Below, in pieces: positions 1-13,043 of a stretch of DNA of 14,007 bases. The stretch's first letter is position 1, and every line of letters starts with the position of its first letter. The notes beneath the pieces are model-generated. The model saw only the letters and a program-made list of their open reading frames with translations, had not been told where the DNA came from and did no database searches. The stretch comes from a virus (Duplodnaviria; Heunggongvirae; Uroviricota; Caudoviricetes). The stretch covers positions 1 through 14,007 of the IMG/VR virus record IMGVR_UViG_3300028453_000018; one strand, written 5' to 3'. The translations under genes and the position numbers were made by a program.

Positions 1-357
1 AATGATACGGCGACGCAGCCGCGTTTAAAGCAGGTTGCGCTGTCGGCAATTTCGGAGGTCAACGCAGAGCTGTATGAGTTTCGCAGACGCCAGCAGATGC
101 TGGGATATGCCTCGCTGGCTGAGGTTCCGGCGGAGCAGCTGGACGGCAAAAGTGAGCGCATTCAGCACTATTTCAACGCGGTTTACTGCTGGGCACGCGC
201 CATGCTCAACGAACGATACCAGGACTATGACGCCACGGCATCCGGTGTGAAGCGGGGCGAAGAACTGGCAGAAGCCAGCGGTGATTTGTGGCGTGACGCC
301 CGCTGGGCCATCAGCCGGGTGCAGGATGCGCCGCACTGCACAGTGGAGCTTATCTGA
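1..357 (+). CDS. L: Capsid completion/head stabilisation protein (P2 gpL-like), 3' portion only; the 5' end lies upstream of the window
   Basis: Frame 1 is open from nt 1 to the TGA at 355-357 (the ORF track lists only the part from the first ATG at 97). The stop overlaps the ATG of the next gene (TGATG), and the position immediately upstream of gene X matches P2 synteny. Product assignment is by position and recollection of gpL-like sequence, not by search. Confidence 0.6.
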   Translation, partial: NDTATQPRLKQVALSAISEVNAELYEFRRRQQMLGYASLAEVPAEQLDGKSERIQHYFNAVYCWARAMLNERYQDYDATASGVKRGEELAEASGDLWRDARWAISRVQDAPHCTVELI

Positions 358-560
358 TGAAAGTGCGTGCGCATCAGTATGACACGGTGGACGCGCTTTG
401 CTGGCGTCATTACGGGCGCACGCAGGGTGTCACGGAGCAGGTACTGAAGGCAAATCCGGGGCTTGCCGAATACGGCCCCTTTTTACCTCACGGGCTGCAG
501 GTGGAGCTGCCGGACATTCCGACCACCACCATCGTGCAGACCGTCCAGCTATGGGACTGA
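357..560 (+). CDS. X: Tail protein X (P2 gpX-like, 67 aa)
   Basis: 67-aa ORF, the same length as P2 gpX, coupled to the upstream stop and located between L and the lysis cassette as in P2. Confidence 0.8.
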   Translation: MKVRAHQYDTVDALCWRHYGRTQGVTEQVLKANPGLAEYGPFLPHGLQVELPDIPTTTIVQTVQLWD

Positions 561-563
561 ATT

Positions 564-779
564 ATGACGCTTGAGCGAATCAGCGCCTTTATCACGTATT
601 GCATCGCCGTCGTGCTGGCCTGGCTGGGCGATTTGTCCATCAAGGATGCCTCAACGCTGGGCGGCCTGATGATTGGTGTGCTGATGCTGGCTATCAACTG
701 GTACTACAAACACAAAGCCTACCAGCTTCTGCGCGACGGGCAGATCTCGCGGGAGGACTATGAATCCATCAATCGTTAA
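564..779 (+). CDS. Holin, small two-TMD type (71 aa)
   Basis: 71-aa protein with two hydrophobic helices (ISAFITYCIAVVLAWLG and LGGLMIGVLMLAINWYY) and a charged C-terminus, immediately upstream of and overlapping the endolysin gene. Confidence 0.7.
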   Translation: MTLERISAFITYCIAVVLAWLGDLSIKDASTLGGLMIGVLMLAINWYYKHKAYQLLRDGQISREDYESINR

Positions 780-1272
780 ACGCTGCCTTGTCGGGGCCGT
801 GCTGGCTATTGCTGCCACGCTGCCGGGTTTTCAGCAGCTTCACACCTCCGTGGAGGGGCTGAAACTGATTGCCGATTACGAAGGTTGTCGTCTGCAGCCG
901 TATCAGTGCAGCGCGGGTGTCTGGACCGACGGCATTGGTAATACGTCAGGCGTCATTCCCGGCAAAACCATTACGGAGCGACAGGCAGCAGAAGGGCTGA
1001 TCTCCAACGTGCTGCGTGTGGAGCGGGCGCTGGAAAGGTGTGTGAAGCAACAGCCGCCGCAGAAGGTGTATGACGCTGCGGTGTCGTTTGCCTTCAACGT
1101 GGGAACGGGCAATGCCTGCAGTTCCACGCTGGTGAAATTACTCAATCAGCGGCGCTGGGCAGATGCGTGCCGACAGTTGCCGCGCTGGGTTTATGTGAAA
1201 GGTGTTTTTAATCAGGGGCTGGATAACCGCCGTGCGCGGGAGATGGCCTGGTGCTTACAGGGAGCAAACTGA
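760..1272 (+). CDS. Endolysin, phage lysozyme (T4 E-like fold) with an N-terminal SAR (signal-anchor-release) domain
   Basis: The N-terminus MNPSIVKRCLVGAVLAIAATLPGF is a Gly/Ala-rich weakly hydrophobic segment after KR. It is followed by EGxRLxPYQCxxGVWTxGxGxT, which matches the T4-lysozyme catalytic region E...D/C...T. A good SD (GGGAGG) precedes the ATG at 760. Confidence 0.9.
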   Translation: MNPSIVKRCLVGAVLAIAATLPGFQQLHTSVEGLKLIADYEGCRLQPYQCSAGVWTDGIGNTSGVIPGKTITERQAAEGLISNVLRVERALERCVKQQPPQKVYDAAVSFAFNVGTGNACSSTLVKLLNQRRWADACRQLPRWVYVKGVFNQGLDNRRAREMAWCLQGAN

Positions 1273-1273
1273 A

Positions 1274-1651
1274 ATGAAAAAGAAATTAATCAGCGGACTG
1301 TTTCTGATGTTATGGATGGCGTTGTTAATCGCAGCAATGGTGTATCCGCAGGGGATTTTTCCGGTACTGGCAGCGTCCGGCGTTTGGGTAGCCTGTTTGC
1401 TGACATGGGCGGTAATTCCGGTAGCACTGGCTGCGTTAATTAAGAATGGCCCGCTCTGGCAGGAGTTAAGGGCATCTTTGCTGAAGACAATTACCCGAAA
1501 AGAAAACGTATTTACCAGTTGGGTGATGCGATTGCTGATTGTTGTAAGTCTCGCCTGGACGGGGTGGGCTATTACCCTGGTCTTTTATCTACTGACCGTT
1601 ATTGCCTTCTGGATCACCCGTAATCAGATGGCGCAACAGGTGGCAGCATGA
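1274..1651 (+). CDS. LysA-like small integral membrane protein (putative lysis timing / antiholin-like)
   Basis: Taken from the ATG at 1274 just after the endolysin stop; the ORF track's 1202 start overlaps the endolysin. About 125 aa with several predicted TM helices (LFLMLWMALLIAAMV, VLAASGVWVACLLTWAVIPVALAAL, LLIVVSLAWTGWAITLVFYLLTVIAFWI). The position equals lysA of P2. Confidence 0.65.
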   Translation: MKKKLISGLFLMLWMALLIAAMVYPQGIFPVLAASGVWVACLLTWAVIPVALAALIKNGPLWQELRASLLKTITRKENVFTSWVMRLLIVVSLAWTGWAITLVFYLLTVIAFWITRNQMAQQVAA

Positions 1652-2076
1652 ACCGGTTGCTGCTGGTTGTGCTGGCGTTATTACTGGCGGCGCTGGGCTG
1701 GCAGACGTGGCGGCTGGCTGATGCCAGCCAGACCATCAGCACGCAGGCAGACGAGCTTCGGAGCAAAAGCCAGGCACTGGCAAAGAGCAACAGCCAGCTT
1801 ATCAGCCTGTCCATTCTGACTGAAACCAATAACCGGGAGCAGGCGCGGCTCTATGCCGAAGCAGAACAGACCAGCGCACAGCTGAGACAACGACAACGCC
1901 GGATCGAGGAACTGAAACGTGAGAACGAGGATTTACGCCGCTGGGCTGATACTCCTTTGCCTGCTGACATTATCCGGCTGCGGGAACGTCCGGCACTCAC
2001 CGGAGGTGCAGCTTACCGTCAGTGGTTGTCCGCGAGTGACGCCGTGTCGGCTGGATCAGACAGCGCCGCGCACTAA
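1648..2076 (+). CDS. lysB: i-spanin (Rz-like; P2 LysB-like)
   Basis: N-terminal TM anchor (LLLVVLALLLAALGW) followed by a charged, Q/R/E-rich coiled-coil-like periplasmic domain. The start overlaps the upstream stop (ATGA), and an o-spanin ORF is embedded in the +1 frame. Confidence 0.8.
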   Translation: MNRLLLVVLALLLAALGWQTWRLADASQTISTQADELRSKSQALAKSNSQLISLSILTETNNREQARLYAEAEQTSAQLRQRQRRIEELKRENEDLRRWADTPLPADIIRLRERPALTGGAAYRQWLSASDAVSAGSDSAAH

Positions 2077-2209
2077 CGGTGATCTGAACGCATTGCTGGA
2101 TGAAACGGAGGCCGCCTGGGCGGTCTGTGCAGACAAAGTGGACATGATTATTGCGTGTCAGGAGCGAAACAGTGAACAAACCACAATCCCTGCGCCACGC
2201 CCTCAATAA
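1919..2209 (+). CDS. lysC: o-spanin lipoprotein (Rz1-like; P2 LysC-like)
   Basis: GTG start in the +1 frame inside the 3' end of lysB. Lipoprotein signal peptide with lipobox LTLSG|C, and a Pro/Cys-containing mature region. At 96 aa it equals P2 LysC and extends past the lysB stop. Confidence 0.75.
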   Translation: MRTRIYAAGLILLCLLTLSGCGNVRHSPEVQLTVSGCPRVTPCRLDQTAPRTNGDLNALLDETEAAWAVCADKVDMIIACQERNSEQTTIPAPRPQ

Positions 2210-2603
2210 AGCGGTGCCTTATGTCCGCAATAACCCGGACAAACTGCATCTGTTTGTGGATAACGGTTCGCTGGTTGCCACGGGGGCCAGCTCCATGTCA
2301 TGGGAGTACCGTTACACCCTGAACGCAGTGATTGAGGATTTCAGCGGCGACCAGAATCTGCTGATGGCCCCGGTTATGCTGTGGTTGCGGGATAACCAGC
2401 CCGATGCCATCAATAACCCGGAGTTACGGGAAAAGTTATTCACCTTTGAGGTGGATATTCTGCGCAACGATGTCTGTGATATCAGCCTTAACCTGCAACT
2501 GACAGAGCGTGTGCTGGTCAGCACTGACGGCAGTGTGTCGAACGTTGAAGCGGTAGCGGAACCTGATGAACCTGAAGAAATGTGGACGGTGAAACGTGGC
2601 TGA
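2151..2603 (+). CDS. R: Tail completion protein R (P2 gpR-like)
   Basis: About 150 aa with a gpR-like motif (LHLFVDNGS...), positioned between the lysis genes and S. The start is uncertain: ATG at 2151, or GTG at 2172 preceded by CAGGAGCG; either way it overlaps the end of lysC. Confidence 0.8.
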   Translation: MRVRSETVNKPQSLRHALNKAVPYVRNNPDKLHLFVDNGSLVATGASSMSWEYRYTLNAVIEDFSGDQNLLMAPVMLWLRDNQPDAINNPELREKLFTFEVDILRNDVCDISLNLQLTERVLVSTDGSVSNVEAVAEPDEPEEMWTVKRG

Positions 2604-3042
2604 ATTGCAGAAGGTGGACGACTGGTTGAGTGCCTTGCTGGCGAATCTGGAACCAGCCGCCAGAAGCCGCATGATGCGCCAGCTGGCGCAGGAACTGCGC
2701 CGGACACAGCAGCAGAATATCAGGATGCAGCGCAATCCTGATGGCAGCAGTTATGAACCGCGCAGGGTAACAGCACGCAGCAAGAAGGGGCGCATCAAAC
2801 GTCAGATGTTTGCAAAGCTGCGCACCACAAAATACCTGAAAACTGCCGCCAGCGCCGACTCTGCCAGCGTACAGTTTGAAGGCAAGGTGCAGCGTATTGC
2901 CCGTGTTCACCATTACGGCCTGCGTGATCGCGTCAGTCGCAAAGGACCGGAGGTCCGTTACGCAGAGCGCCGCCTGCTGGGTGTAAATGATGATGTTGAG
3001 GCAATGACCCGCGACATGATTCTGCAATGGCTGGCGGGGTGA
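2596..3042 (+). CDS. S: Tail completion / virion morphogenesis protein S (P2 gpS-like)
   Basis: 148 aa; GTG start at 2596 overlapping the R stop (GTGGCTGA); position and size match P2 gpS. Confidence 0.85.
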   Translation: MAELQKVDDWLSALLANLEPAARSRMMRQLAQELRRTQQQNIRMQRNPDGSSYEPRRVTARSKKGRIKRQMFAKLRTTKYLKTAASADSASVQFEGKVQRIARVHHYGLRDRVSRKGPEVRYAERRLLGVNDDVEAMTRDMILQWLAG

Positions 3043-3046
3043 TCTT

Positions 3047-3064
3047 TGTATCAGCACTGATACA
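3047..3064 (+). promoter_or_regulatory. Candidate Ogr/Delta-type late-promoter activator site (TGT-N12-ACA) upstream of V
   Basis: TGTATCAGCACTGATACA: TGT at 3047-3049, a 12-nt spacer, ACA at 3062-3064, and the whole 18-mer is a near-perfect palindrome. It lies in the 68-bp S-V spacer, where P2 has promoter PV. Confidence 0.55.
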
Positions 3065-3110
3065 AGTTGCAGCACTGCCGCCTTTCTTCCCCTGATGGCA
3101 ACCTTTCCCT

Positions 3111-3689
3111 ATGAACGCACAATTAACCGAAATCATGCGCCTTATCACCAACCTGATCCGCACTGGGGTAGTCACCGAAGTGGACCGGGAAAACTGGCTT
3201 TGTCGGGTGAAAACGGGCGACCTTGAAACCAACTGGATTAACTGGCTGACGCTGCGCGCGGGTAATGCCCGCACATGGTGGAAACCATCGGAAGGTGAGC
3301 AGGTGGTGCTGCTGAGTCTGGGCGGCAATCTGGAGACCGCCTTTGCGCTGCCCGCTGTCTATTCGAATCAGTTCGCACCACCGTCGACGTCGGCGGACGC
3401 CTGCGTGACAGAACATCCTGACGGTGGCTGGTTTGAATACGAACCCGCCACCGGGCGCTGGTATGTCAGGGGCATCAAATCAATGGTCATTGAGGCTGCT
3501 GACAACATCACCCTGAAAACCAGTGAGTTTGTACTGGAGGCTGACCGCACGCGCATTAACAGCGAAGTGGTGATCAATGGTGGCGTTACCCAGGGCGGCG
3601 GAGCGATGAGTTCTAACGGGATCGTGGTTGATGCGCATCAGCATACTGGCGTCCTGAAAGGCGGCGATACAACCGGAGGCCCGGTATGA
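3111..3689 (+). CDS. V: Baseplate spike / assembly protein V (P2 gpV-like)
   Basis: 192 aa, with an N-terminus resembling gpV and a Gly-rich C-terminus (GGDTTGGPV). An in-frame stop lies 18 nt upstream of the ATG, so the start is well defined. Confidence 0.9.
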   Translation: MNAQLTEIMRLITNLIRTGVVTEVDRENWLCRVKTGDLETNWINWLTLRAGNARTWWKPSEGEQVVLLSLGGNLETAFALPAVYSNQFAPPSTSADACVTEHPDGGWFEYEPATGRWYVRGIKSMVIEAADNITLKTSEFVLEADRTRINSEVVINGGVTQGGGAMSSNGIVVDAHQHTGVLKGGDTTGGPV

Positions 3690-7058: not shown

Positions 7059-7651
7059 TGAAACCTGTTTTTGATGAAAATGGGCTGGCTACAGTGCCGG
7101 GCGATATGCGTTGTTTTTATTATGATGCTGAAACATCTGAGTATACGGGTTGGTCTGATGAATATATTAATACTGGCGTAAGTATGCCCGCCTGTTCCAC
7201 TGGTATTGACCCTGGCGAAAACATTCCGGGAAAAGTGGCTGTATTTACAGGTAAGGGATGGAGCCATGAAGAGGACCATCGCAATGAGACTGTTTACTCA
7301 ATCGAAAATGGCGCAACTGTTACAGTGGATTATATCGGTGCCATCAAAAACGGTTATGTCACGCTTTCACCGTTAACGCCATACGATAAATGGGATGGTG
7401 AGAAATGGGTGACGGATACTGAAATACAACATCGCGCCGCAGTAGAAGCGGCAGAAACACAGCGTCGGTCACTGATTGATACTGCAATGGCTTCCGTTAG
7501 TTTGGTTCAACTGAAATTACGGGTCGGAAGAAAATTAACTGATGCAGAAACAGTAAAACTTAATGCTGTTCTTGACTACATTGACGCAGTGACGGCAACA
7601 GATTTCAGCACAGCCCCTGATATTAACTGGCCCAAACTACCAGAATTTTAA
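7058..7651 (+). CDS. G: Tail fiber assembly chaperone G (P2 gpG / Tfa-like)
   Basis: 197 aa; start overlaps the H stop (TAATG); position directly after H; lower GC than the surrounding genes, as is typical of the host-range module. Confidence 0.8.
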   Translation: MKPVFDENGLATVPGDMRCFYYDAETSEYTGWSDEYINTGVSMPACSTGIDPGENIPGKVAVFTGKGWSHEEDHRNETVYSIENGATVTVDYIGAIKNGYVTLSPLTPYDKWDGEKWVTDTEIQHRAAVEAAETQRRSLIDTAMASVSLVQLKLRVGRKLTDAETVKLNAVLDYIDAVTATDFSTAPDINWPKLPEF

Positions 7652-7658
7652 ATTCCTG

Positions 7659-7681
7659 CCCCGCGCCTGCGGGGATTTTTT
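7659..7681 (+). terminator. Rho-independent terminator after G
   Basis: GC stem CCCCGC (7659-7664) / GCGGGG (7669-7674) with a 4-nt loop, followed by TTTTTT (7676-7681), 8 nt after the G stop codon. Confidence 0.65.
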
Positions 7682-7692
7682 CACCCCGTCGT

Positions 7693-7710
7693 TGTGCCAT
7701 TTTCCATACA
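7693..7710 (+). promoter_or_regulatory. Candidate Ogr/Delta-type late-promoter activator site (TGT-N12-ACA) upstream of FI
   Basis: TGTGCCATTTTCCATACA: TGT at 7693-7695, a 12-nt spacer, ACA at 7708-7710. Its centre is about 85 nt upstream of the FI ATG; the FI ATG has a GGAGAG SD. Confidence 0.5.
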
Positions 7711-7785
7711 AACCCCATCGCGTGCACCCTGCGTGTATCAACCAGAACATAGACAGACCCCCTCTACAACCGGAGAGACTGCCTT

Positions 7786-8958
7786 ATGGCTCAGGATTAC
7801 CACCACGGGGTGCGCGTTGTTGAAGTCAACGAAGGCACCCGATCCATTACCACGGTGAGCACCGCCATCGTGGGCATGGTCTGCACGGGCGATGATGCCG
7901 ATGCAAAAATGTTTCCTCTTAATAAACCCGTGCTGATCACTGATGTACTGACCGCCAGCGGTAAAGCGGGTGAGTCCGGCACGCTGGCCCGTTCGCTGGA
8001 TGCCATCGCTGACCAGGCAAAACCCGTGACCGTTGTTGTGCGTGTGCCGCAGGGTGAAACGGAAGAAGAAACCACGACTAATATCATCGGCGCAGTGACC
8101 GCTGAAGGTAAAAAAACAGGTATGAAAGCCCTGTTATCTGCCCAGACACAGCTCGGCGTTAAACCGCGCATTCTCGGCGTGCCAGGTCACGATAACAAAG
8201 CCGTTGCGACTGAGTTGCTGAGCGTGGCGCAAAGCCTGCGTGGGTTTGCTTACCTGTCAGCGTATGGCTGCAAGACGGTACAGGAGGCGATCACTTACCG
8301 TGAAAACTTCAGCCAGCGCGAAGGGATGCTGATCTGGCCTGACTTTACTGGCTGGGACACGGTGCTGAATGCCGAAGCAACGGCATATGCCACCGCCCGT
8401 GCGCTCGGTCTGCGCGCCAAAATTGATGAGCAGACGGGGTGGCACAAGAGCCTGTCCAACGTAGGTGTGAACGGTGTCACCGGAATTTCTGCTGATGTGT
8501 TCTGGGATTTGCAGGACCCGGCAACCGATGCAGGTCTGCTGAACCAGAACGACGTCACCACACTTGTGCGTAAAGACGGCTTCCGCTTCTGGGGTTCCCG
8601 CTGCCTGAGTGATGACCCGCTCTTTGCCTTCGAAAACTACACCCGCACGGCGCAGGTGCTGATGGACACGATGGCAGAAGCACACATGTGGGCGGTGGAT
8701 AAACCTCTTAACCCGTCGCTGGCGCGCGACATTATCGAAGGTATCCGCGCCAAAATGCGCAGCCTGGTCAGTCAGGGGTATCTCATTGGTGGTGATTGCT
8801 GGCTGGACGAGTCGGTGAACGACAAAGACACGCTGAAAGCCGGAAAACTCACCATCGACTACGACTACACGCCAGTGCCGCCACTTGAAAACCTGATGCT
8901 GCGTCAGCGCATCACCGATCAGTACCTGGTGAATTTCGCCAGCCAGGTCAGCGCGTAA
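7786..8958 (+). CDS. FI: Contractile tail sheath protein FI
   Basis: 390 aa (P2 FI is about 396 aa); follows a terminator, promoter motif and SD; position before the tube gene. Confidence 0.95.
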
Positions 8959-8967
8959 GGGGACAAC

Positions 8968-9483
8968 ATGGCTTTACCACGCAAATTAAAACACCTGAAC
9001 CTGTTTAACGACGGGAACAACTGGCAGGGGATCGTTGAATCGCTGACGCTGCCGAAATTCACCCGCAAATATGAGAAATATCGCGGCGGCGGAATGCCGG
9101 GTGCAGTGGATGTGGATCTGGGGCTTGATGACAGTGCGCTGGACACAGAATTTTCCATTGGTGGTACTGAACTGCTGCTGTTTAAGCAGATGGGCAAAGC
9201 CACTGTGGATGGCATCCAGCTGCGCTTTACCGGCTCTATCCAGCGTGACGATACCGGGGAAGTGCAGGCCGTGGAGCTTGTGGTGCGTGGTCGTCACAAA
9301 GAAGTGGATTCCGGCGAGTGGAAGACGGGCGAAAGTAACACCACCAAAGTGACCAGTACCAACAGCTACGCGAAGCTGACCATCAATGGTGAGGTGCTCT
9401 ATGAAGTGGACCTTATCAACATGGTGGAAATTGTGGACGGAGTGGACCTGATGGAAGCGCACCGCAACGCCCTTGGCCTCTGA
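8968..9483 (+). CDS. FII: Tail tube protein FII
   Basis: 171 aa (P2 FII is about 172 aa), 9 nt after the sheath stop, with SD GGGGACAAC. Confidence 0.95.
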   Translation: MALPRKLKHLNLFNDGNNWQGIVESLTLPKFTRKYEKYRGGGMPGAVDVDLGLDDSALDTEFSIGGTELLLFKQMGKATVDGIQLRFTGSIQRDDTGEVQAVELVVRGRHKEVDSGEWKTGESNTTKVTSTNSYAKLTINGEVLYEVDLINMVEIVDGVDLMEAHRNALGL

Positions 9484-9537
9484 AGTATCTGAACGGCGCG
9501 GGATTCCGCGCCAGAACCCAATTTACAGGACAACAAA

Positions 9538-9840
9538 ATGAGCGATAAGCAGACTGAAAAGACCATTCAACTGGATACCCCCATCATGCGCGGTAAAACA
9601 GAAATTACCGAAATTGTGTTGCGTAAACCGCAGTCCGGTGCGCTGCGTGGCACACGCCTGCAGGCCATTATGGATATGGATGTGAACGCGATGATGACTG
9701 TGATCCCCCGCATCTCCAGTCCGGCACTGACTGCACAGGAAATCGCAGAGATGGACCCGGCAGATCTCACTGCCATGTCGGTTGAGGTTGTCACTTTTTT
9801 GTTGAAGAAGTCGGTGCTTGCCGGTTTACCGACAGCCTGA
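9538..9840 (+). CDS. E: Tail assembly chaperone E
   Basis: 100-aa ORF between the tube and tape measure genes; it contains the slippery T6G heptamer at 9795-9801 near its 3' end. Confidence 0.85.
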   Translation: MSDKQTEKTIQLDTPIMRGKTEITEIVLRKPQSGALRGTRLQAIMDMDVNAMMTVIPRISSPALTAQEIAEMDPADLTAMSVEVVTFLLKKSVLAGLPTA

Positions 9841-9974
9841 CGGTTGACGATCTGGTGGCAGATATCGCCACCATTTTTCACTGGCCGCCATCCGTTACTG
9901 ACGTTATGCCGCTGACCGAAGTGCTGGAATGGCGGTATAAAGCGATTCAGAGAAGCGGGGCCAACGATGAGTGA
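9538..9974 (+). CDS. E': Tail assembly chaperone E' (E+E' fusion made by a programmed -1 ribosomal frameshift at 9795-9801)
   Basis: The slippery sequence T TTT TTG lies in the E zero frame at 9795-9801. The -1 frame is open from 9801 for 57 codons (VEEVGACRFTDSLTVDDLVADIATIFHWPPSVTDVMPLTEVLEWRYKAIQRSGANDE) and ends at TGA 9972-9974, overlapping the T start codon at 9967. The predicted product is about 145 aa (P2 E+E' is about 142 aa). Confidence 0.7.
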
Positions 9975-12726
9975 TAACAACCTGCGGCTGCAGGTCATTC
10001 TTAATGCGGTTGACAAACTCACCCGCCCATTCCGTGCTGCACAGGCCAGTTCGAAAGAGCTGGCTGGCGCAATCAGAAACTCCCGTGACGCATTAAAGCA
10101 ACTCAATCAGGCGGGTAACAGCCTGGAAAAATTTCGCAAGCTGCAGGCCGATAACAAGAAGTTAGGCGACAGGCTGAACTATGCCAGACAGAAGGCTAAT
10201 TTGCTTAGCTCTGAGCTGGAGGCGATGGAACAACCATCACAACGGCACCTTGTGGCTTTAGGTCGGCAAACGCTGGCAGTCCAACGCCTGGAAGAACAAC
10301 AAAAATATTTGCAGAAGCAAACGGCGCTTGTGCGTGCAGAACTGTACCGGGCGGGAATTTCTGCGAAAGATGATGCGGGAGCAACTGCCCGTTTAGCCCG
10401 TGAAACATCACGTTATAACCAGGAATTGTCGAAACAGGAGGCGCGGCTGAAGCGACTGGGTGAAGCTCAGCGCAGGATGAATGCGGCGCGTGCCAGTTAT
10501 GCCCGTTCGCTGGAGGTGCGCGATCGTATTGCAGGTGCCGGAGCCACTACCACGGCTGCAGGTCTGGCAATGGGGACGCCAGTGATGGCGGCAGTAAAAA
10601 GCTATACCAGCATGGAAGATGCCATGAAAGGTGTGGCAAAGCAGGTCAATGGTCTGCGTGACGATAATGGCAACCGCACTGCACGTTTTTATGAAATGCA
10701 GGATGCCATCAAGGCTGCCAGCGAACAGTTGCCGATGGAAAAAGGTGCGGTGGACTTCGCTGCACTGGTTGAAGGTGGTGCGCGCATGAACGTCGCAAAC
10801 CCTGACGACAGCTGGGAAGACCAGAAACGTGATCTGCTGGCCTTCGCCAGCACGGCGGCAAAGGCGGCAACAGCCTTTGAGCTGCCAGCGGATGAACTGT
10901 CAGAAAGTCTGGGAAAAATCGCCCAGCTCTACAAAATCCCTACCCGCAATATTGAACAGCTCGGTGATGCGCTGAACTATCTGGATGATAACGCCATGTC
11001 GAAAGGGGCAGACATCATTGATGTGATGCAACGCCTGGGCGGTGTGGCTGATCGTCTGGATTATCGTAAAGCGGCGGCGCTGGGTTCCACCTTCCTGACA
11101 CTGGGTGCTGCGCCGGAGGTTGCAGCCAGTGCAGCAAACGCGATGGTGCGTGAGTTGTCCATTGCCACCATGCAAAGCAAGAGTTTCTTTGAAGGGATGA
11201 ATCTGCTGAAACTCAATCCTGAAGTGATTGAAAAGCAGATGACGAAGGATGCGATGGGAACCATCCAGCGCGTGCTGGAGAAGGTGAACGCACTGCCGCA
11301 GGACAAGCGTCTGTCTGCCATGACCATGTTGTTTGGTAAAGAGTTTGGTGATGACGCGGCGAAACTGGCAAACAACCTGCCGGAACTGCAGCGCCAGCTA
11401 AAACTGACAGCGGGCAATGATGCGCTCGGTTCCATGCAGAAAGAATCCGACATCAACAAAGACTCACTTTCTGCTCAGTGGTTGCTGGTCAAAACCGGAG
11501 CGCAGAACACCTTCAGCAGCCTGGGTGAAACGCTGCGCCAGCCGCTGATGGATATTCTGTACACGGTGAAAAGCATCACGGGAGCGTTGCGCCGCTGGAT
11601 GGAAGCTAACCCGGAACTGACAGGCACACTGATGAAAGTAGCGGCTGTTGTGGCTGCGGTTACCGTAGGCCTCGGCACCTTAGCGGTGGCGCTGGCTGCA
11701 GTGCTGGGGCCGCTGGCAGTCATCCGTCTGGGATTCTCTGTGCTGGGTATCAAAACGTTACCTTCCGTTACGGCAGCAGTAACACGAACCAGCAGCGCGT
11801 TGTCCTGGTTAGCTGGCGCTCCACTGGCACTGCTGCGACGCGGGCTTGCTTCATCGGGCAACGCAGCGGGTTTACTTACTGCGCCGTTGTCGTCTTTGCG
11901 CCGCACGGCATCACTGACGGGGAATGTCCTGAAAACTGTAGCAGGTGTGCCGGTTGCACTGTTGCGGTCTGGATTATCCGGTTTACGTGCTGTTGCTGTG
12001 ATGTTTATGAATCCTCTGGCGGTACTGCGCGGTGGACTGTCTGCCGCAGGCGCGGTGCTGCGAGTACTGGCATCCGGTCCGCTGGCGATGCTGCGCGTTG
12101 CCCTGTATGCCATATCTGGTCTGTTAGGTGCTCTGCTCAGTCCGATAGGTCTTGTGGTTACTGCACTGGCGGGTGTGGCGCTGGTTGTCTGGAAATACTG
12201 GCAACCCATCACCGCATTTCTCGGTGGCGTGGTGGAAGGATTCAAAGCGTCGACAGGTCCCATCAGTGCTGCATTCGAACCACTTAAGCCTGTGTTTCAG
12301 TGGATTGGCGACAAAGTGCAGGCGTTGTGGGGTTGGTTTACTGATCTGCTGACGCCTGTTAAGTCGACCTCTGCTGAACTGCAGAGCGCAGCGGCAATGG
12401 GGCGACGATTCGGGGAGGCTCTGGCGGAGGGGCTGAATATGGTCATGCATCCGCTGGACTCCCTGAAATCCGGTGTTTCCTGGTTGCTGGATAAACTCGG
12501 CATTGTCAGTAAAGAAGCTGCAAAGGCGAAACTGCCGGAAAGCGTGACGCGTCAGCAACCTGCGACGGTGAATGCAGACGGTAAAGTGATGATGCCATCG
12601 GGTGGTTTTCCATCATGGGGATATGGCTTTGCGGGGATGTATGACAGCGGCGGCTATATCCCGCGCGGGCAGTTTGGCATCGTCGGTGAAAACGGGCCGG
12701 AAATTGTTAACGGCCGGCAAATGTGA
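9967..12726 (+). CDS. T: Tail tape measure protein T, N-terminal 919 codons, ending at an apparently premature in-frame TGA
   Basis: Long ORF with an alpha-helical, Q/A/R/E-rich N-terminal half and a hydrophobic repeat region (PLALLRRGL, PVALLRSGL, PLAVLRGGL, PLAMLRVAL), sitting between E' and U as in P2. The frame stops at 12724-12726, but the coding signal continues in the -1 frame. Confidence 0.85.
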   Translation: MSDNNLRLQVILNAVDKLTRPFRAAQASSKELAGAIRNSRDALKQLNQAGNSLEKFRKLQADNKKLGDRLNYARQKANLLSSELEAMEQPSQRHLVALGRQTLAVQRLEEQQKYLQKQTALVRAELYRAGISAKDDAGATARLARETSRYNQELSKQEARLKRLGEAQRRMNAARASYARSLEVRDRIAGAGATTTAAGLAMGTPVMAAVKSYTSMEDAMKGVAKQVNGLRDDNGNRTARFYEMQDAIKAASEQLPMEKGAVDFAALVEGGARMNVANPDDSWEDQKRDLLAFASTAAKAATAFELPADELSESLGKIAQLYKIPTRNIEQLGDALNYLDDNAMSKGADIIDVMQRLGGVADRLDYRKAAALGSTFLTLGAAPEVAASAANAMVRELSIATMQSKSFFEGMNLLKLNPEVIEKQMTKDAMGTIQRVLEKVNALPQDKRLSAMTMLFGKEFGDDAAKLANNLPELQRQLKLTAGNDALGSMQKESDINKDSLSAQWLLVKTGAQNTFSSLGETLRQPLMDILYTVKSITGALRRWMEANPELTGTLMKVAAVVAAVTVGLGTLAVALAAVLGPLAVIRLGFSVLGIKTLPSVTAAVTRTSSALSWLAGAPLALLRRGLASSGNAAGLLTAPLSSLRRTASLTGNVLKTVAGVPVALLRSGLSGLRAVAVMFMNPLAVLRGGLSAAGAVLRVLASGPLAMLRVALYAISGLLGALLSPIGLVVTALAGVALVVWKYWQPITAFLGGVVEGFKASTGPISAAFEPLKPVFQWIGDKVQALWGWFTDLLTPVKSTSAELQSAAAMGRRFGEALAEGLNMVMHPLDSLKSGVSWLLDKLGIVSKEAAKAKLPESVTRQQPATVNADGKVMMPSGGFPSWGYGFAGMYDSGGYIPRGQFGIVGENGPEIVNGRQM

Positions 12727-13043
12727 CCAGCCGGAGAAATACAGCTGCACTGGCTGCCGTTGTTGCCGGAATGATGGGCGTTGCTGCCGCGCCAGCAGAG
12801 CTTCCACCGTTGCACCCTTTGGCACTTCCCGCGAAAGGTGGAGAAGCGATGGTGAGTCGCGCAGCCACTGTGCCGCTCGTTCAACGGATTGAGGCACCGA
12901 CGCAGATCATCATTCAGACGCAGCCAGGACAAAGTGCGCAGGATATTGCGCGGGAGGTGGCACGCCAGCTTGATGAACGTGAACGCAGGCTGAAGGCAAA
13001 AGCCAGGAGTAACTACAGCGATCAGGGGGGATACGACGCATGA
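12711..13043 (+). CDS. T: Probable C-terminal segment of tape measure protein T in the -1 frame (frameshifted or pseudogenised 3' end)
   Basis: This frame is open from 12711, just after a TAA at 12708-12710, to TGA 13041-13043, and its stop overlaps the U start codon (ATGA at 13040-13043) in the way P2 junctions do. The T frame and this frame overlap only across 12711-12723. Confidence 0.6.
   Translation, partial: RPANVTSRRNTAALAAVVAGMMGVAAAPAELPPLHPLALPAKGGEAMVSRAATVPLVQRIEAPTQIIIQTQPGQSAQDIAREVARQLDERERRLKAKARSNYSDQGGYDA

Follow-up and report, generated by a model that had tools for sequence, protein, structure and literature searches.

Among the described systems closest to the locus analyzed here, phage P2 carries its lysis genes in the late operon in the order X-Y-K-lysA-lysB-lysC-R, where Y is a 93-aa holin (phrog_175) with three described transmembrane domains (TMDs; PMC3091744) and K belongs to phrog_90. 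The LysB/LysC pair of P2 has been tested experimentally and represents the "overlapped" type of spanins, a family in which Fels-2 is listed and in which the o-spanin gene starts out of frame inside the i-spanin gene and runs past its stop codon (PMC6139136). For the holin and the endolysin the reference systems include HP1, whose Hol protein behaved experimentally as a pinholin and is the partner of the SAR endolysin Lys (PMC7312051), and P1, whose endolysin Lyz works with a different holin/antiholin set, LydA/LydB (PMC9025707).

The lysis cassette and its relatives

The window, i.e., the whole stretch of 14,007 nt of viral DNA that was analyzed, contains five lysis genes on the forward strand, which are bounded upstream by the tail gene X (357-560; Pfam Phage_tail_X, 116 bits) and downstream by the tail completion gene R (2172-2603; PF06891, 161 bits). 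They encode a holin, a predicted SAR endolysin, a LysA-like membrane protein, LysB and LysC. All five open reading frames were found where a preliminary description, made from the letters of the sequence, had placed them between X and R, and each one has a match to the expected family. The functions assigned in that description are backed for all five genes by profile searches, by the comparison with P2 and by conservation in a set of 46 related loci from Escherichia, Klebsiella, Salmonella, Pantoea, Erwinia, Pseudomonas and others. In the profile searches curated cutoffs were exceeded by the holin, the endolysin, LysB and LysC, as well as by the products of the flanking genes X, R and S. With a probability of about 90% we consider the cassette to be the late-operon lysis module of a Fels-2/4LV2017/500465-1-type prophage from the P2 family (Peduoviridae), operating by the mechanism proposed below.

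The cassette is already known, being an ordinary five-gene lysis set of P2-like prophages whose genes are named by public pipelines. At the DNA level its identity is 97-98% with 4LV2017, 500465-1 and prophages of E. coli, and approximately 80-85% with Fels-2 and SEN8; Fels-2, SEN8, Klebsiella phage 4LV2017 and Escherichia phage 500465-1 all carry the same five genes with allelic differences only. At an identity of at least 95% the cassette was present in approximately 880 of the 5,426 complete E. coli genomes of the collection. Its place in the late operon and its gene order are those of P2. Orthology of the whole cassette to that of P2 was nevertheless rejected, since BLASTP alignments of the holin and the endolysin with Y and K were marginal or insignificant, and thus only lysA, lysB and lysC are orthologous to P2 genes. 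The cassette holin has two TMDs and belongs to the HP1 family and to phrog_20, and the endolysin falls into phrog_7 (SAR lysozyme), in contrast to the PHROGs of Y and K.

Overlapped spanin genes and the start of R

The i-spanin gene lysB (1648-2076), equivalent to Rz, encodes a protein of 142 aa without cysteine, which matches TIGR03495 (phage_LysB) with 174 bits at a cutoff of 92.75 and phrog_89 with an E value of 3e-46. It has one N-terminal hydrophobic segment, at residues 1-21 (Kyte-Doolittle 2.86) with the TMD placed at 3-19, as expected of an i-spanin anchor. The o-spanin gene lysC (1919-2209), equivalent to Rz1, encodes 96 aa from a GTG start preceded at 8 nt by the Shine-Dalgarno-like sequence GAGGA (1906-1910), and its product matches the NF038368 model (P2_Rz1) with 124 bits at a cutoff of 27 and PF23793 with 57 bits. 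As had been proposed in the preliminary description, the +1-frame start of the gene lies within lysB and its end beyond the lysB stop. The term "embedded" used there for the pair has to be corrected, as the lysC stop at 2209 lies beyond the lysB stop at 2076 and the architecture is the overlapped one of P2; in lambda, Rz1 lies wholly embedded in Rz, whereas the o-spanin gene of the cassette outlasts that of the i-spanin (PMC6139136). LysB and LysC are homologous to their P2 counterparts (32 and 42% identity, respectively), and lysC of P2 also encodes 96 aa, begins within lysB in the +1 frame and reaches 38 nt into R, with an overlap of lysB and lysC of 146 nt as compared to 158 nt in the cassette.

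By hydropathy and reading of the sequence, the LysC N-terminus is a signal peptide followed by a lipobox, MRTRIYAAGLILLCLLTLSG and then C21-G22; the lipobox itself, L16-T-L-S-G-C21 with glycine at +2, is encoded at 1964-1981. The absence of aspartate at +2 (Gly22) means that there is no inner membrane retention signal. The lipobox recognized in the preliminary description is sustained by the related loci, where the signal peptide is retained and the consensus L-[S/A]-G-C is found in 45 of 46, the exception (L038) having LPGC. In none of the 46 loci is the lysC frame interrupted by a stop codon, and a GTG or ATG start is kept even where identity drops to 35-45%. The four periplasmic cysteines of LysC (C37, C43, C70 and C80) are conserved in position, so that LysC has the residues for intermolecular disulfide links, the links themselves being putative. 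PseT.3 of T4 is, like LysB, devoid of cysteine (PMC6139136).

It should be noted that the GC-rich window contains many off-frame open reading frames of 90-260 aa, and for this reason an open +1 frame alone is not evidence for a gene. If 1919-2209 were open merely by chance, as can happen in GC-rich DNA, LysB would be the sole product of the region, and this would agree with the abundance of long off-frame frames and with several public records in which the frame is unannotated or annotated short. We regard this explanation as extremely improbable, given the score against the curated P2_Rz1 model, the retention of start, signal peptide and cysteines in 46 loci and of the lipobox in all but one of them, and the fact that lysC of P2 is a recognized gene (PMC6139136). 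Evidence for coding also comes from nucleotide diversity by codon position, computed across 32 distinct sequences. Diversity is 0.126 in the lysB/lysC overlap (1919-2076), about half of the 0.229 seen in the lysB-only part; within the overlap it is approximately 0.15 at both wobble positions and 0.069 at the non-wobble position that the two frames share. The lysB-only, lysC-only and R-only segments show a single-frame signature and the overlap shows a two-frame one, the pattern switching exactly at the gene borders, with the third-position peak shifting to the lysC frame in 2077-2171. The length of the overlap, 158 nt, is the same in 38 of 43 loci. This pattern indicates that both frames of the segment are under purifying selection and that the dual coding suspected in the preliminary description is real.

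Downstream, lysC overlaps R by 38 nt (2172-2209), and not by up to 58 nt as previously thought, because R starts at GTG 2172 and not at TTG 2151. The upstream start was rejected in view of the Shine-Dalgarno sequence AGGAG (2160-2164) situated 7 nt before GTG 2172, the alignment to the GpR profile, in which residue 1 falls on profile position 1, the database annotations and the 43 loci, 39 of which share the 38-nt overlap; the same length is found in P2 (8455-8492). A second dual-coding stretch, which had been placed at 2151-2209, thus exists in the shorter form 2172-2209, where diversity is highest at the third codon position of R (0.239) and R therefore dominates the constraint.

Automated annotation of this region is uneven. 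PGAP names for proteins identical to those of the cassette are HP1 family phage holin, lysozyme, LysB and LysC, with lysC starting at a CTG 14 codons downstream of GTG 1919. One RefSeq phage record holds only the last 38 codons of lysC, the gene is absent from one GenBank record, and the PHROG label of LysA is "endolysin". The lysC model of the preliminary description (GTG 1919, 96 aa, full signal peptide) improves on several of the public ones, in line with the known tendency of overlapped o-spanin genes to be missed or given a wrong start (PMC6139136). The discovery value of the cassette is small, as this is textbook P2-family biology, and its practical use is that of an annotation check. 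A counterpart of the "putative attenuator" hairpin noted in lysC of P2 was also considered, and was dropped since the 7-bp GC hairpin at approximately 2109-2126 has an ordinary folding energy (z score -0.79) and is not followed by a T-run. A scan of positions 1-3400 for promoters and terminators gave nothing within the cassette above shuffled expectation.

Holin and predicted SAR endolysin

The first gene of the cassette (564-779) encodes a class II holin of 71 aa from a single start codon. The protein matches PF16080, the HP1 holin family, with 36.7 bits (Pfam cutoff 28.8) and phrog_20 with an E value of 2e-26, and stays under the cutoff of the Pfam P21 holin S family (23.2 bits versus 26). 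Hydropathy confirmed the two hydrophobic segments which had been claimed for it, at about residues 6-22 and 30-46, followed by a charged C-terminus; together with the small size and the adjoining gene of a SAR endolysin this is the layout of pinholins. The holin stop and the endolysin start, an ATG at 760, overlap by 20 nt (760-779), a feature missing from the preliminary description and identical in length in all loci compared; holin and endolysin genes also overlap in HP1, which is likewise a P2-family phage. HP1 further resembles the cassette in having its holin in the same Pfam family, and it differs in that hol and lys lie elsewhere in the genome, that there is no LysA, that TMD1 is less hydrophobic and that the holins are only 21% identical. 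The likeness to phage 21 consists in a two-segment holin with a charged C-terminus beside a SAR endolysin and in the sub-threshold P21 holin S match, while S21 has no pairwise similarity to the holin and the cassette has no dual-start antiholin.

The preliminary description had linked the holin to pinholins such as S21 by analogy. The link goes further than that, in that the protein belongs to a family with a pinholin as prototype, but the resemblance to S21 does not extend to TMD1, which is far more hydrophobic in the cassette holin. Its Kyte-Doolittle value is 2.18 as compared to 1.61 in HP1 Hol and 0.63 in S21 (reference sequence 100% identical to phage 21), and its Gly/Ala/Ser/Thr fraction is 0.33 as compared to 0.60 in S21. 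Neither hydropathy nor composition of the holin thus shows the weakly hydrophobic, releasable TMD1 of S21, and a mechanism in which TMD1 exits the membrane cannot be assumed. Pairwise BLASTP gave no match of the holin to S21 and an insignificant one to HP1 Hol (E 0.19); since profile methods alone link these proteins, close homology is not claimed.

These same data lend some weight to a canonical class II holin that makes large holes, so that the ensuing loss of membrane potential would merely trigger the SAR endolysin, as in P1, where Lyz has LydA as its holin. To our knowledge a pinholin is not a requirement for SAR endolysins, and a TMD1 as hydrophobic as TMD2 (2.18 and 2.09), the paucity of Gly/Ala/Ser/Thr in TMD1, the lack of a dual-start motif in the gene and the insignificant pairwise similarities would all suit such a holin. 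We give this reading a substantial chance, although not the better one, as the protein exceeds the HP1 holin family cutoff and narrowly misses the one for P21 holin S, and as the homologous holin of SEN8 carries the annotation "pin holin". The prototype HP1 Hol, moreover, killed cells without lysing them and released no beta-galactosidase (PMC7312051). By analogy with this prototype the holin of the cassette most likely makes small holes.

The endolysin gene (760-1272) encodes 170 aa of the T4-lysozyme fold family, of the P1 Lyz type (PF00959, 137 bits). The closest relatives of solved structure are 1xjt/1xju (E 2e-26), which we take to be structures of P1 Lyz, in agreement with the annotation notes of Fels-2 and Midge, whose records name P1 Lyz as the closest characterized protein. 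More distant are 3hde/3hdf, presumably the endolysin of phage 21. The endolysin shares with 1xjt/1xju the block EGCRxxPYxCxAGVWTDGIGNT, and the active-site residues of the P1 Lyz pattern are E41, C43, C50 and T56, with E41 and the threonine 15 residues downstream aligning to the 1xjt motif as in T4-lysozyme-like muramidases. In the homologous Lys of HP1 (34% identity, E 3e-27) a cysteine in the SAR segment is likewise combined with EGC...YxC.

The putative SAR segment (778-831) consists of K7 and R8 followed by C9-F24 (CLVGAVLAIAATLPGF). It has a hydropathy of 2.08, a value which alone does not separate a SAR segment from an ordinary signal anchor, and a Gly/Ala/Ser/Thr fraction of 0.47. The KRC at its start is kept in nearly all homologues compared, one of them (L034) having KNC, and Cys9, Cys43 and Cys50 are kept in every one, even in the distant Midge, ENT90 and HP1. 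A cysteine lies in the putative N-terminal SAR helix of the cassette endolysin and in the SAR helix of P1 Lyz, at position 9 in the former and presumably at position 13 in the latter. With two further cysteines flanking the active site the cysteine pattern is of the P1 Lyz type, and the activation by disulfide isomerization known from P1 Lyz would be expected here.

Proposed mechanism and the LysA slot

The mechanism that we propose builds on what the sequences show, namely the gene identities and families, the signal and lipobox, the conserved cysteines, the dual-coding constraint and the geometry of the overlaps; how large the holes are, how the disulfide switches, what the spanins do and what LysA contributes are taken over from relatives. 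The endolysin would be exported by Sec and held by its SAR helix at the inner membrane, where it would be inactive, probably due, as in P1 Lyz, to a disulfide of Cys43 and Cys50 around the catalytic Glu41. The 71-aa holin would build up in the membrane and depolarize it at a programmed time, most likely via small holes, upon which the SAR helix would be released, the Cys9 thiol would reshuffle the disulfide and the endolysin would degrade the murein. The inner membrane i-spanin LysB and the outer membrane lipoprotein LysC, the latter translated in the +1 frame starting at the GTG within lysB that has its own Shine-Dalgarno site and stopping 38 nt into R, would form a periplasm-spanning complex that disrupts the outer membrane after murein loss. 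The polytopic LysA may, like its P2 counterpart, be a putative antiholin that modulates the timing of lysis and is not essential.

The LysA-like protein (1274-1651; 125 aa) lies between the endolysin gene and lysB and is polytopic, with three to four hydrophobic segments. The name given to it in the preliminary description is justified by phrog_162, which it matches over its full length (E 1e-43) and which also holds P2 LysA (E 2e-67); it further matches NF038378 with 122 bits. The pairwise alignment to P2 LysA has an E value of 0.002 and covers one helix, so that the likeness exists at the profile level only. The slot is variable: among 37 related cassettes, 14 have no gene there and five have other inserts, and in Fels-2 it is annotated as two short ORFs. 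The LysA allele is approximately 40% identical to the alleles of cassettes that are otherwise 70-90% identical, as in SEN8 and the Klebsiella ST phages. Given the cassettes that lack the gene and the profile-level likeness, a role of LysA in lysis is accessory and putative, and an interaction with the holin cannot be deduced from P2, since the partner holin is unrelated to Y.

This variability, the divergence of the allele, the marginal pairwise similarity and an uninformative NCBI family name would also be compatible with an unrelated membrane protein carried as cargo in a permissive slot in place of a lysis regulator. We hold this to be unlikely, as the full-length match is to the PHROG that includes P2 LysA itself, and as position, size and multi-TMD character are those of P2 LysA, which the P2 record credits with an effect on lysis timing. 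A putative lysis modulator of the LysA kind is the preferred reading of this gene. Given a TMD1 that is hydrophobic throughout and the absence of a dual start, the holin may also act in a third way, neither by exit of TMD1 nor by a large hole, with the LysA slot being a swappable, holin-specific timing module; we think this rather improbable, but if it were true the polymorphic LysA slot, as such a module, would tune lysis to the host.

Gene content and relatives of the lysis cassette

The window covers the late genes for morphogenesis and lysis in a prophage of the P2 family (Peduoviridae). Plus-strand ORFs and profile searches (Pfam, PHROG, and NCBIfam/TIGR models) place five lysis genes, all on the plus strand, between the tail genes X (357-560, Phage_tail_X) and R (2172-2603, PF06891), the latter followed by S (2596-3042). 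These encode a holin of 71 aa (564-779; PF16080 'HP1 holin family', 36.7 bits with a cutoff of 28.8; phrog_20), an endolysin of 170 aa (760-1272; PF00959, 137 bits), the membrane protein LysA of 125 aa (1274-1651; phrog_162, NCBIfam NF038378), the i-spanin LysB of 142 aa (1648-2076; TIGR03495 equivalog, 174 bits with a cutoff of 92.75) and the o-spanin LysC of 96 aa (1919-2209; NF038368 P2_Rz1 equivalog, 124 bits with a cutoff of 27; PF23793). Identical proteins are named by the NCBI pipeline 'HP1 family phage holin', 'lysozyme', 'DNZ54_00345 family protein', 'Rz-like lysis system protein LysB' and 'Rz1-like lysis system protein LysC', an NCBI note describing LysC as 'substantially overlapping although not fully embedded'. 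Over positions 300-2700 identity is 97-98% to E. coli prophage CP019275, Klebsiella phage 4LV2017 and Escherichia phage 500465-1, and ~80-85% to Salmonella phages Fels-2 and SEN8. Of 5,426 complete E. coli genomes, 774 contain the lysis segment 560-2210 with a coverage of at least 80%, mostly at 95% identity or more. This is a known type of lysis system that annotation pipelines name as a matter of routine. The five genes of the preliminary description are confirmed and the functions given there are supported by profile searches, comparison with P2 and conservation across 46 loci, with corrections to the spanin architecture, the second overlap and the grounds for a pinholin. The gene order is that of P2 (X-Y-K-lysA-lysB-lysC-R). 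Since P2 Y (phrog_175) and P2 K (phrog_90) are unrelated to the holin and endolysin of the window, the cassette is a mosaic of a P2-type lysA/lysB/lysC module and an HP1-type holin-endolysin module.

Elsewhere in the window the tape-measure gene T (9967-13043) is split, as one C is missing from a C-run at ~12714 with respect to E. coli ZF34 (AACGG-CCGGCA in the window, AACGGCCCGGCA in ZF34); T ends after 919 codons (stop 12724-12726) and its last 106 codons form a separate ORF in another frame (12723-13043), which reflects either a defect of the prophage or an error in sequencing the homopolymer. The heptamer TTTTTTG at 9795-9801, in the last part of gene E (9538-9840), corresponds to the conserved P2-family -1 slippery site for the tail chaperone E+E', an identity based on position only as its single occurrence in the window is no more than expected by chance. 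Between G and FI some close relatives, E. coli ZF34 among them, carry opposite-strand alternative tail-fibre/assembly genes and a recombinase (7817-9696 in the related locus L047), which is an invertible host-range segment; the window contains neither an invertible tail-fibre segment nor a recombinase, and has a 135-nt gap at 7651-7786.

The o-spanin gene and its overlaps

Off-frame ORFs longer than the 96 codons of lysC are common in this GC-rich window, so the open frame alone is no evidence for the gene, and the comparative tests suggested in the preliminary description were therefore run on 46 loci (12 phage, 33 genomic, and the window), taken from Escherichia, Klebsiella, Enterobacter, Citrobacter, Raoultella, Pantoea, Erwinia, Tatumella, Pseudomonas, and other genera. 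The lysC frame is free of stops in all 46, with GTG or ATG at the equivalent start position, and the lipoprotein signal proposed for this ORF is present throughout, as a basic n-region, a hydrophobic core and then a lipobox (LTLSG-C, LCAG-C, LLAG-C, MLSG-C and similar; LPG-C in one locus). Another four cysteine positions are kept, down to 35-45% identity. Asp never directly follows the lipid-modified Cys, the residue there being Gly, Ala or Thr, as is consistent with outer-membrane sorting.

Nucleotide diversity per codon position was determined on 32 distinct aligned sequences. At lysB positions 1/2/3 it is 0.18/0.17/0.34 in the lysB-only segment, with the wobble at position 3, and 0.15/0.07/0.16 in 1919-2073, where the minimum falls on the site that is wobble in neither frame and mean diversity is halved (0.126 vs 0.229 in the lysB-only part). 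Further downstream it peaks at lysC position 3 in 2077-2171 (0.26), lysC being the dominant frame, at R position 3 in 2172-2206 (0.24, with 0.05 at the lysC wobble) and again at R position 3 in the R-only segment (0.37), where R dominates. The region 1919-2076 thus carries the clear dual-coding signature that had been predicted; in the second overlap, likewise described as dual-coding, R dictates the sequence and the last dozen LysC residues are under weak constraint. This overlap measures 38 nt and not up to 58 nt, R starting at GTG 2172, which has AGGAG 7 nt upstream, makes residue 1 of R coincide with the first position of the GpR profile, and corresponds to the start annotated in relatives. 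The longer figure derived from TTG 2151, which lacks the Shine-Dalgarno, profile and annotation support of GTG 2172. P2 lysC (8202-8492) has the same length of 96 aa, likewise begins within lysB, and shares its last 38 nt with R, which starts at 8455. In 38 of the 43 fully matched loci lysB and lysC share 158 nt, and in 39 lysC and R share 38 nt.

Because lysC extends beyond the lysB stop, the spanin architecture is 'overlapped', as in the tested P2 LysB/LysC pair, rather than 'embedded', the lambda type (PMC6139136), as it had first been called; the P2 o-spanin family of that spanin survey includes Fels-2. LysB has a single N-terminal TMD and zero cysteines, and mature LysC has four (C37, C43, C70, C80), a likeness to T4, where the o-spanin alone carries the cysteines needed for function (PMC6139136). 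A 7-bp GC-rich hairpin (~2109-2126, GGCCGCC/GGCGGUC) lies in the lysC-only stretch, and P2 has a hairpin annotated as 'putative attenuator' at a nearby position; folding energy in the window is ordinary (z = -0.79), with no T-run after the hairpin.

The coordinates 1919-2209 proved to be the best model for lysC: GTG 1919 is the earliest possible start after TGA 1913-1915, has GAGGA in front of it (1906-1910), and no other start yields a complete signal peptide. Public models are discordant. PGAP begins the gene with the CTG of codon 15 (locus L046, 2102-2350), RefSeq reduces the gene of phage 500465-1 to its last 38 codons (L001, 3294-3410), the GenBank record of 4LV2017 (L002) has no lysC annotation, SEN8 has the full-length gene (291 nt), and the o-spanin model of phage Midge (L009, 2033-2191) begins past the lipobox. 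This matches the high reported rate at which o-spanin genes are missed or mis-started (PMC6139136).

Endolysin and holin

The endolysin begins MNPSIVK7R8-C9LVGAVLAIAATLPGF, with two basic residues and then a hydrophobic stretch rich in Gly/Ala/Thr (G/A/S/T fraction 0.47), the putative signal-arrest-release (SAR) helix. Its best solved relatives are 1xjt/1xju (E 2e-26; common motif EGCRxxPYxCxAGVWTDGIGNT), which we take to be P1 Lyz in its inactive and active states, and the Fels-2 and Midge records likewise give P1 Lyz as the nearest characterised protein. Identity to HP1 Lys is 34% (E 3e-27). Every homologue examined, including the distant Midge, ENT90 and HP1 Lys, retains Cys9 (within the SAR helix), Cys43 and Cys50; this is the cysteine pattern of the P1-type switch, and suggests activation of the endolysin by disulfide isomerisation. 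In the GenBank record of 4LV2017 the gene is modelled shorter, from 799, which would remove the SAR helix.

The holin has hydrophobic segments at ~6-22 and ~30-46, a charged C-terminus and one Met start only. Its gene overlaps the endolysin gene (ATG at 760) by 20 nt (760-779) in all loci compared; HP1 hol and lys also overlap, by 8 nt. A pinholin had been proposed by analogy with S21, to which pairwise comparison gave no alignment (the S21 sequence used being 100% identical to phage 21), and the Pfam P21 holin S model scores 23.2 bits, below its cutoff of 26. HP1 Hol, the PF16080 prototype, kills E. coli without lysis or beta-galactosidase release, is required for phage release and is partnered by an overlapping SAR-endolysin gene; its authors call it a pinholin (PMC7312051). 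Family membership thereby lends the idea family-level experimental support beyond the S21 analogy, by a link at profile level only (pairwise 21% identity, E 0.19). Against this stands the character of TMD1, with a hydropathy of 2.18 vs 1.61 in HP1 Hol and 0.63 in S21; being much more hydrophobic, it should not be assumed to undergo S21-type release. We put the probability of a pinholin at roughly 55-65%.

LysA and its variable slot

The 125-aa protein (1274-1651) has 3-4 hydrophobic segments and, like P2 LysA, matches phrog_162 over its full length; pairwise similarity of the two is marginal. The PHROG label 'endolysin', carried over into PHROG-derived RefSeq labels, is evidently wrong. In a survey of 37 related cassettes (loci L003-L042) the LysA slot is a hot spot of presence/absence and allele variation: a LysA homologue is detectable in 18, five hold another insert, and the slot is empty in 14, in which the endolysin gene ends 4 nt inside lysB. 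Outside the near-identical clade LysA homologues are ~40% identical, vs 70-92% for the flanking lysis genes. P2 lysA is recorded as non-essential and timing-modifying (P2 record; PMC3091744), and the variability of the slot fits a putative non-essential timing role here, as in P2.
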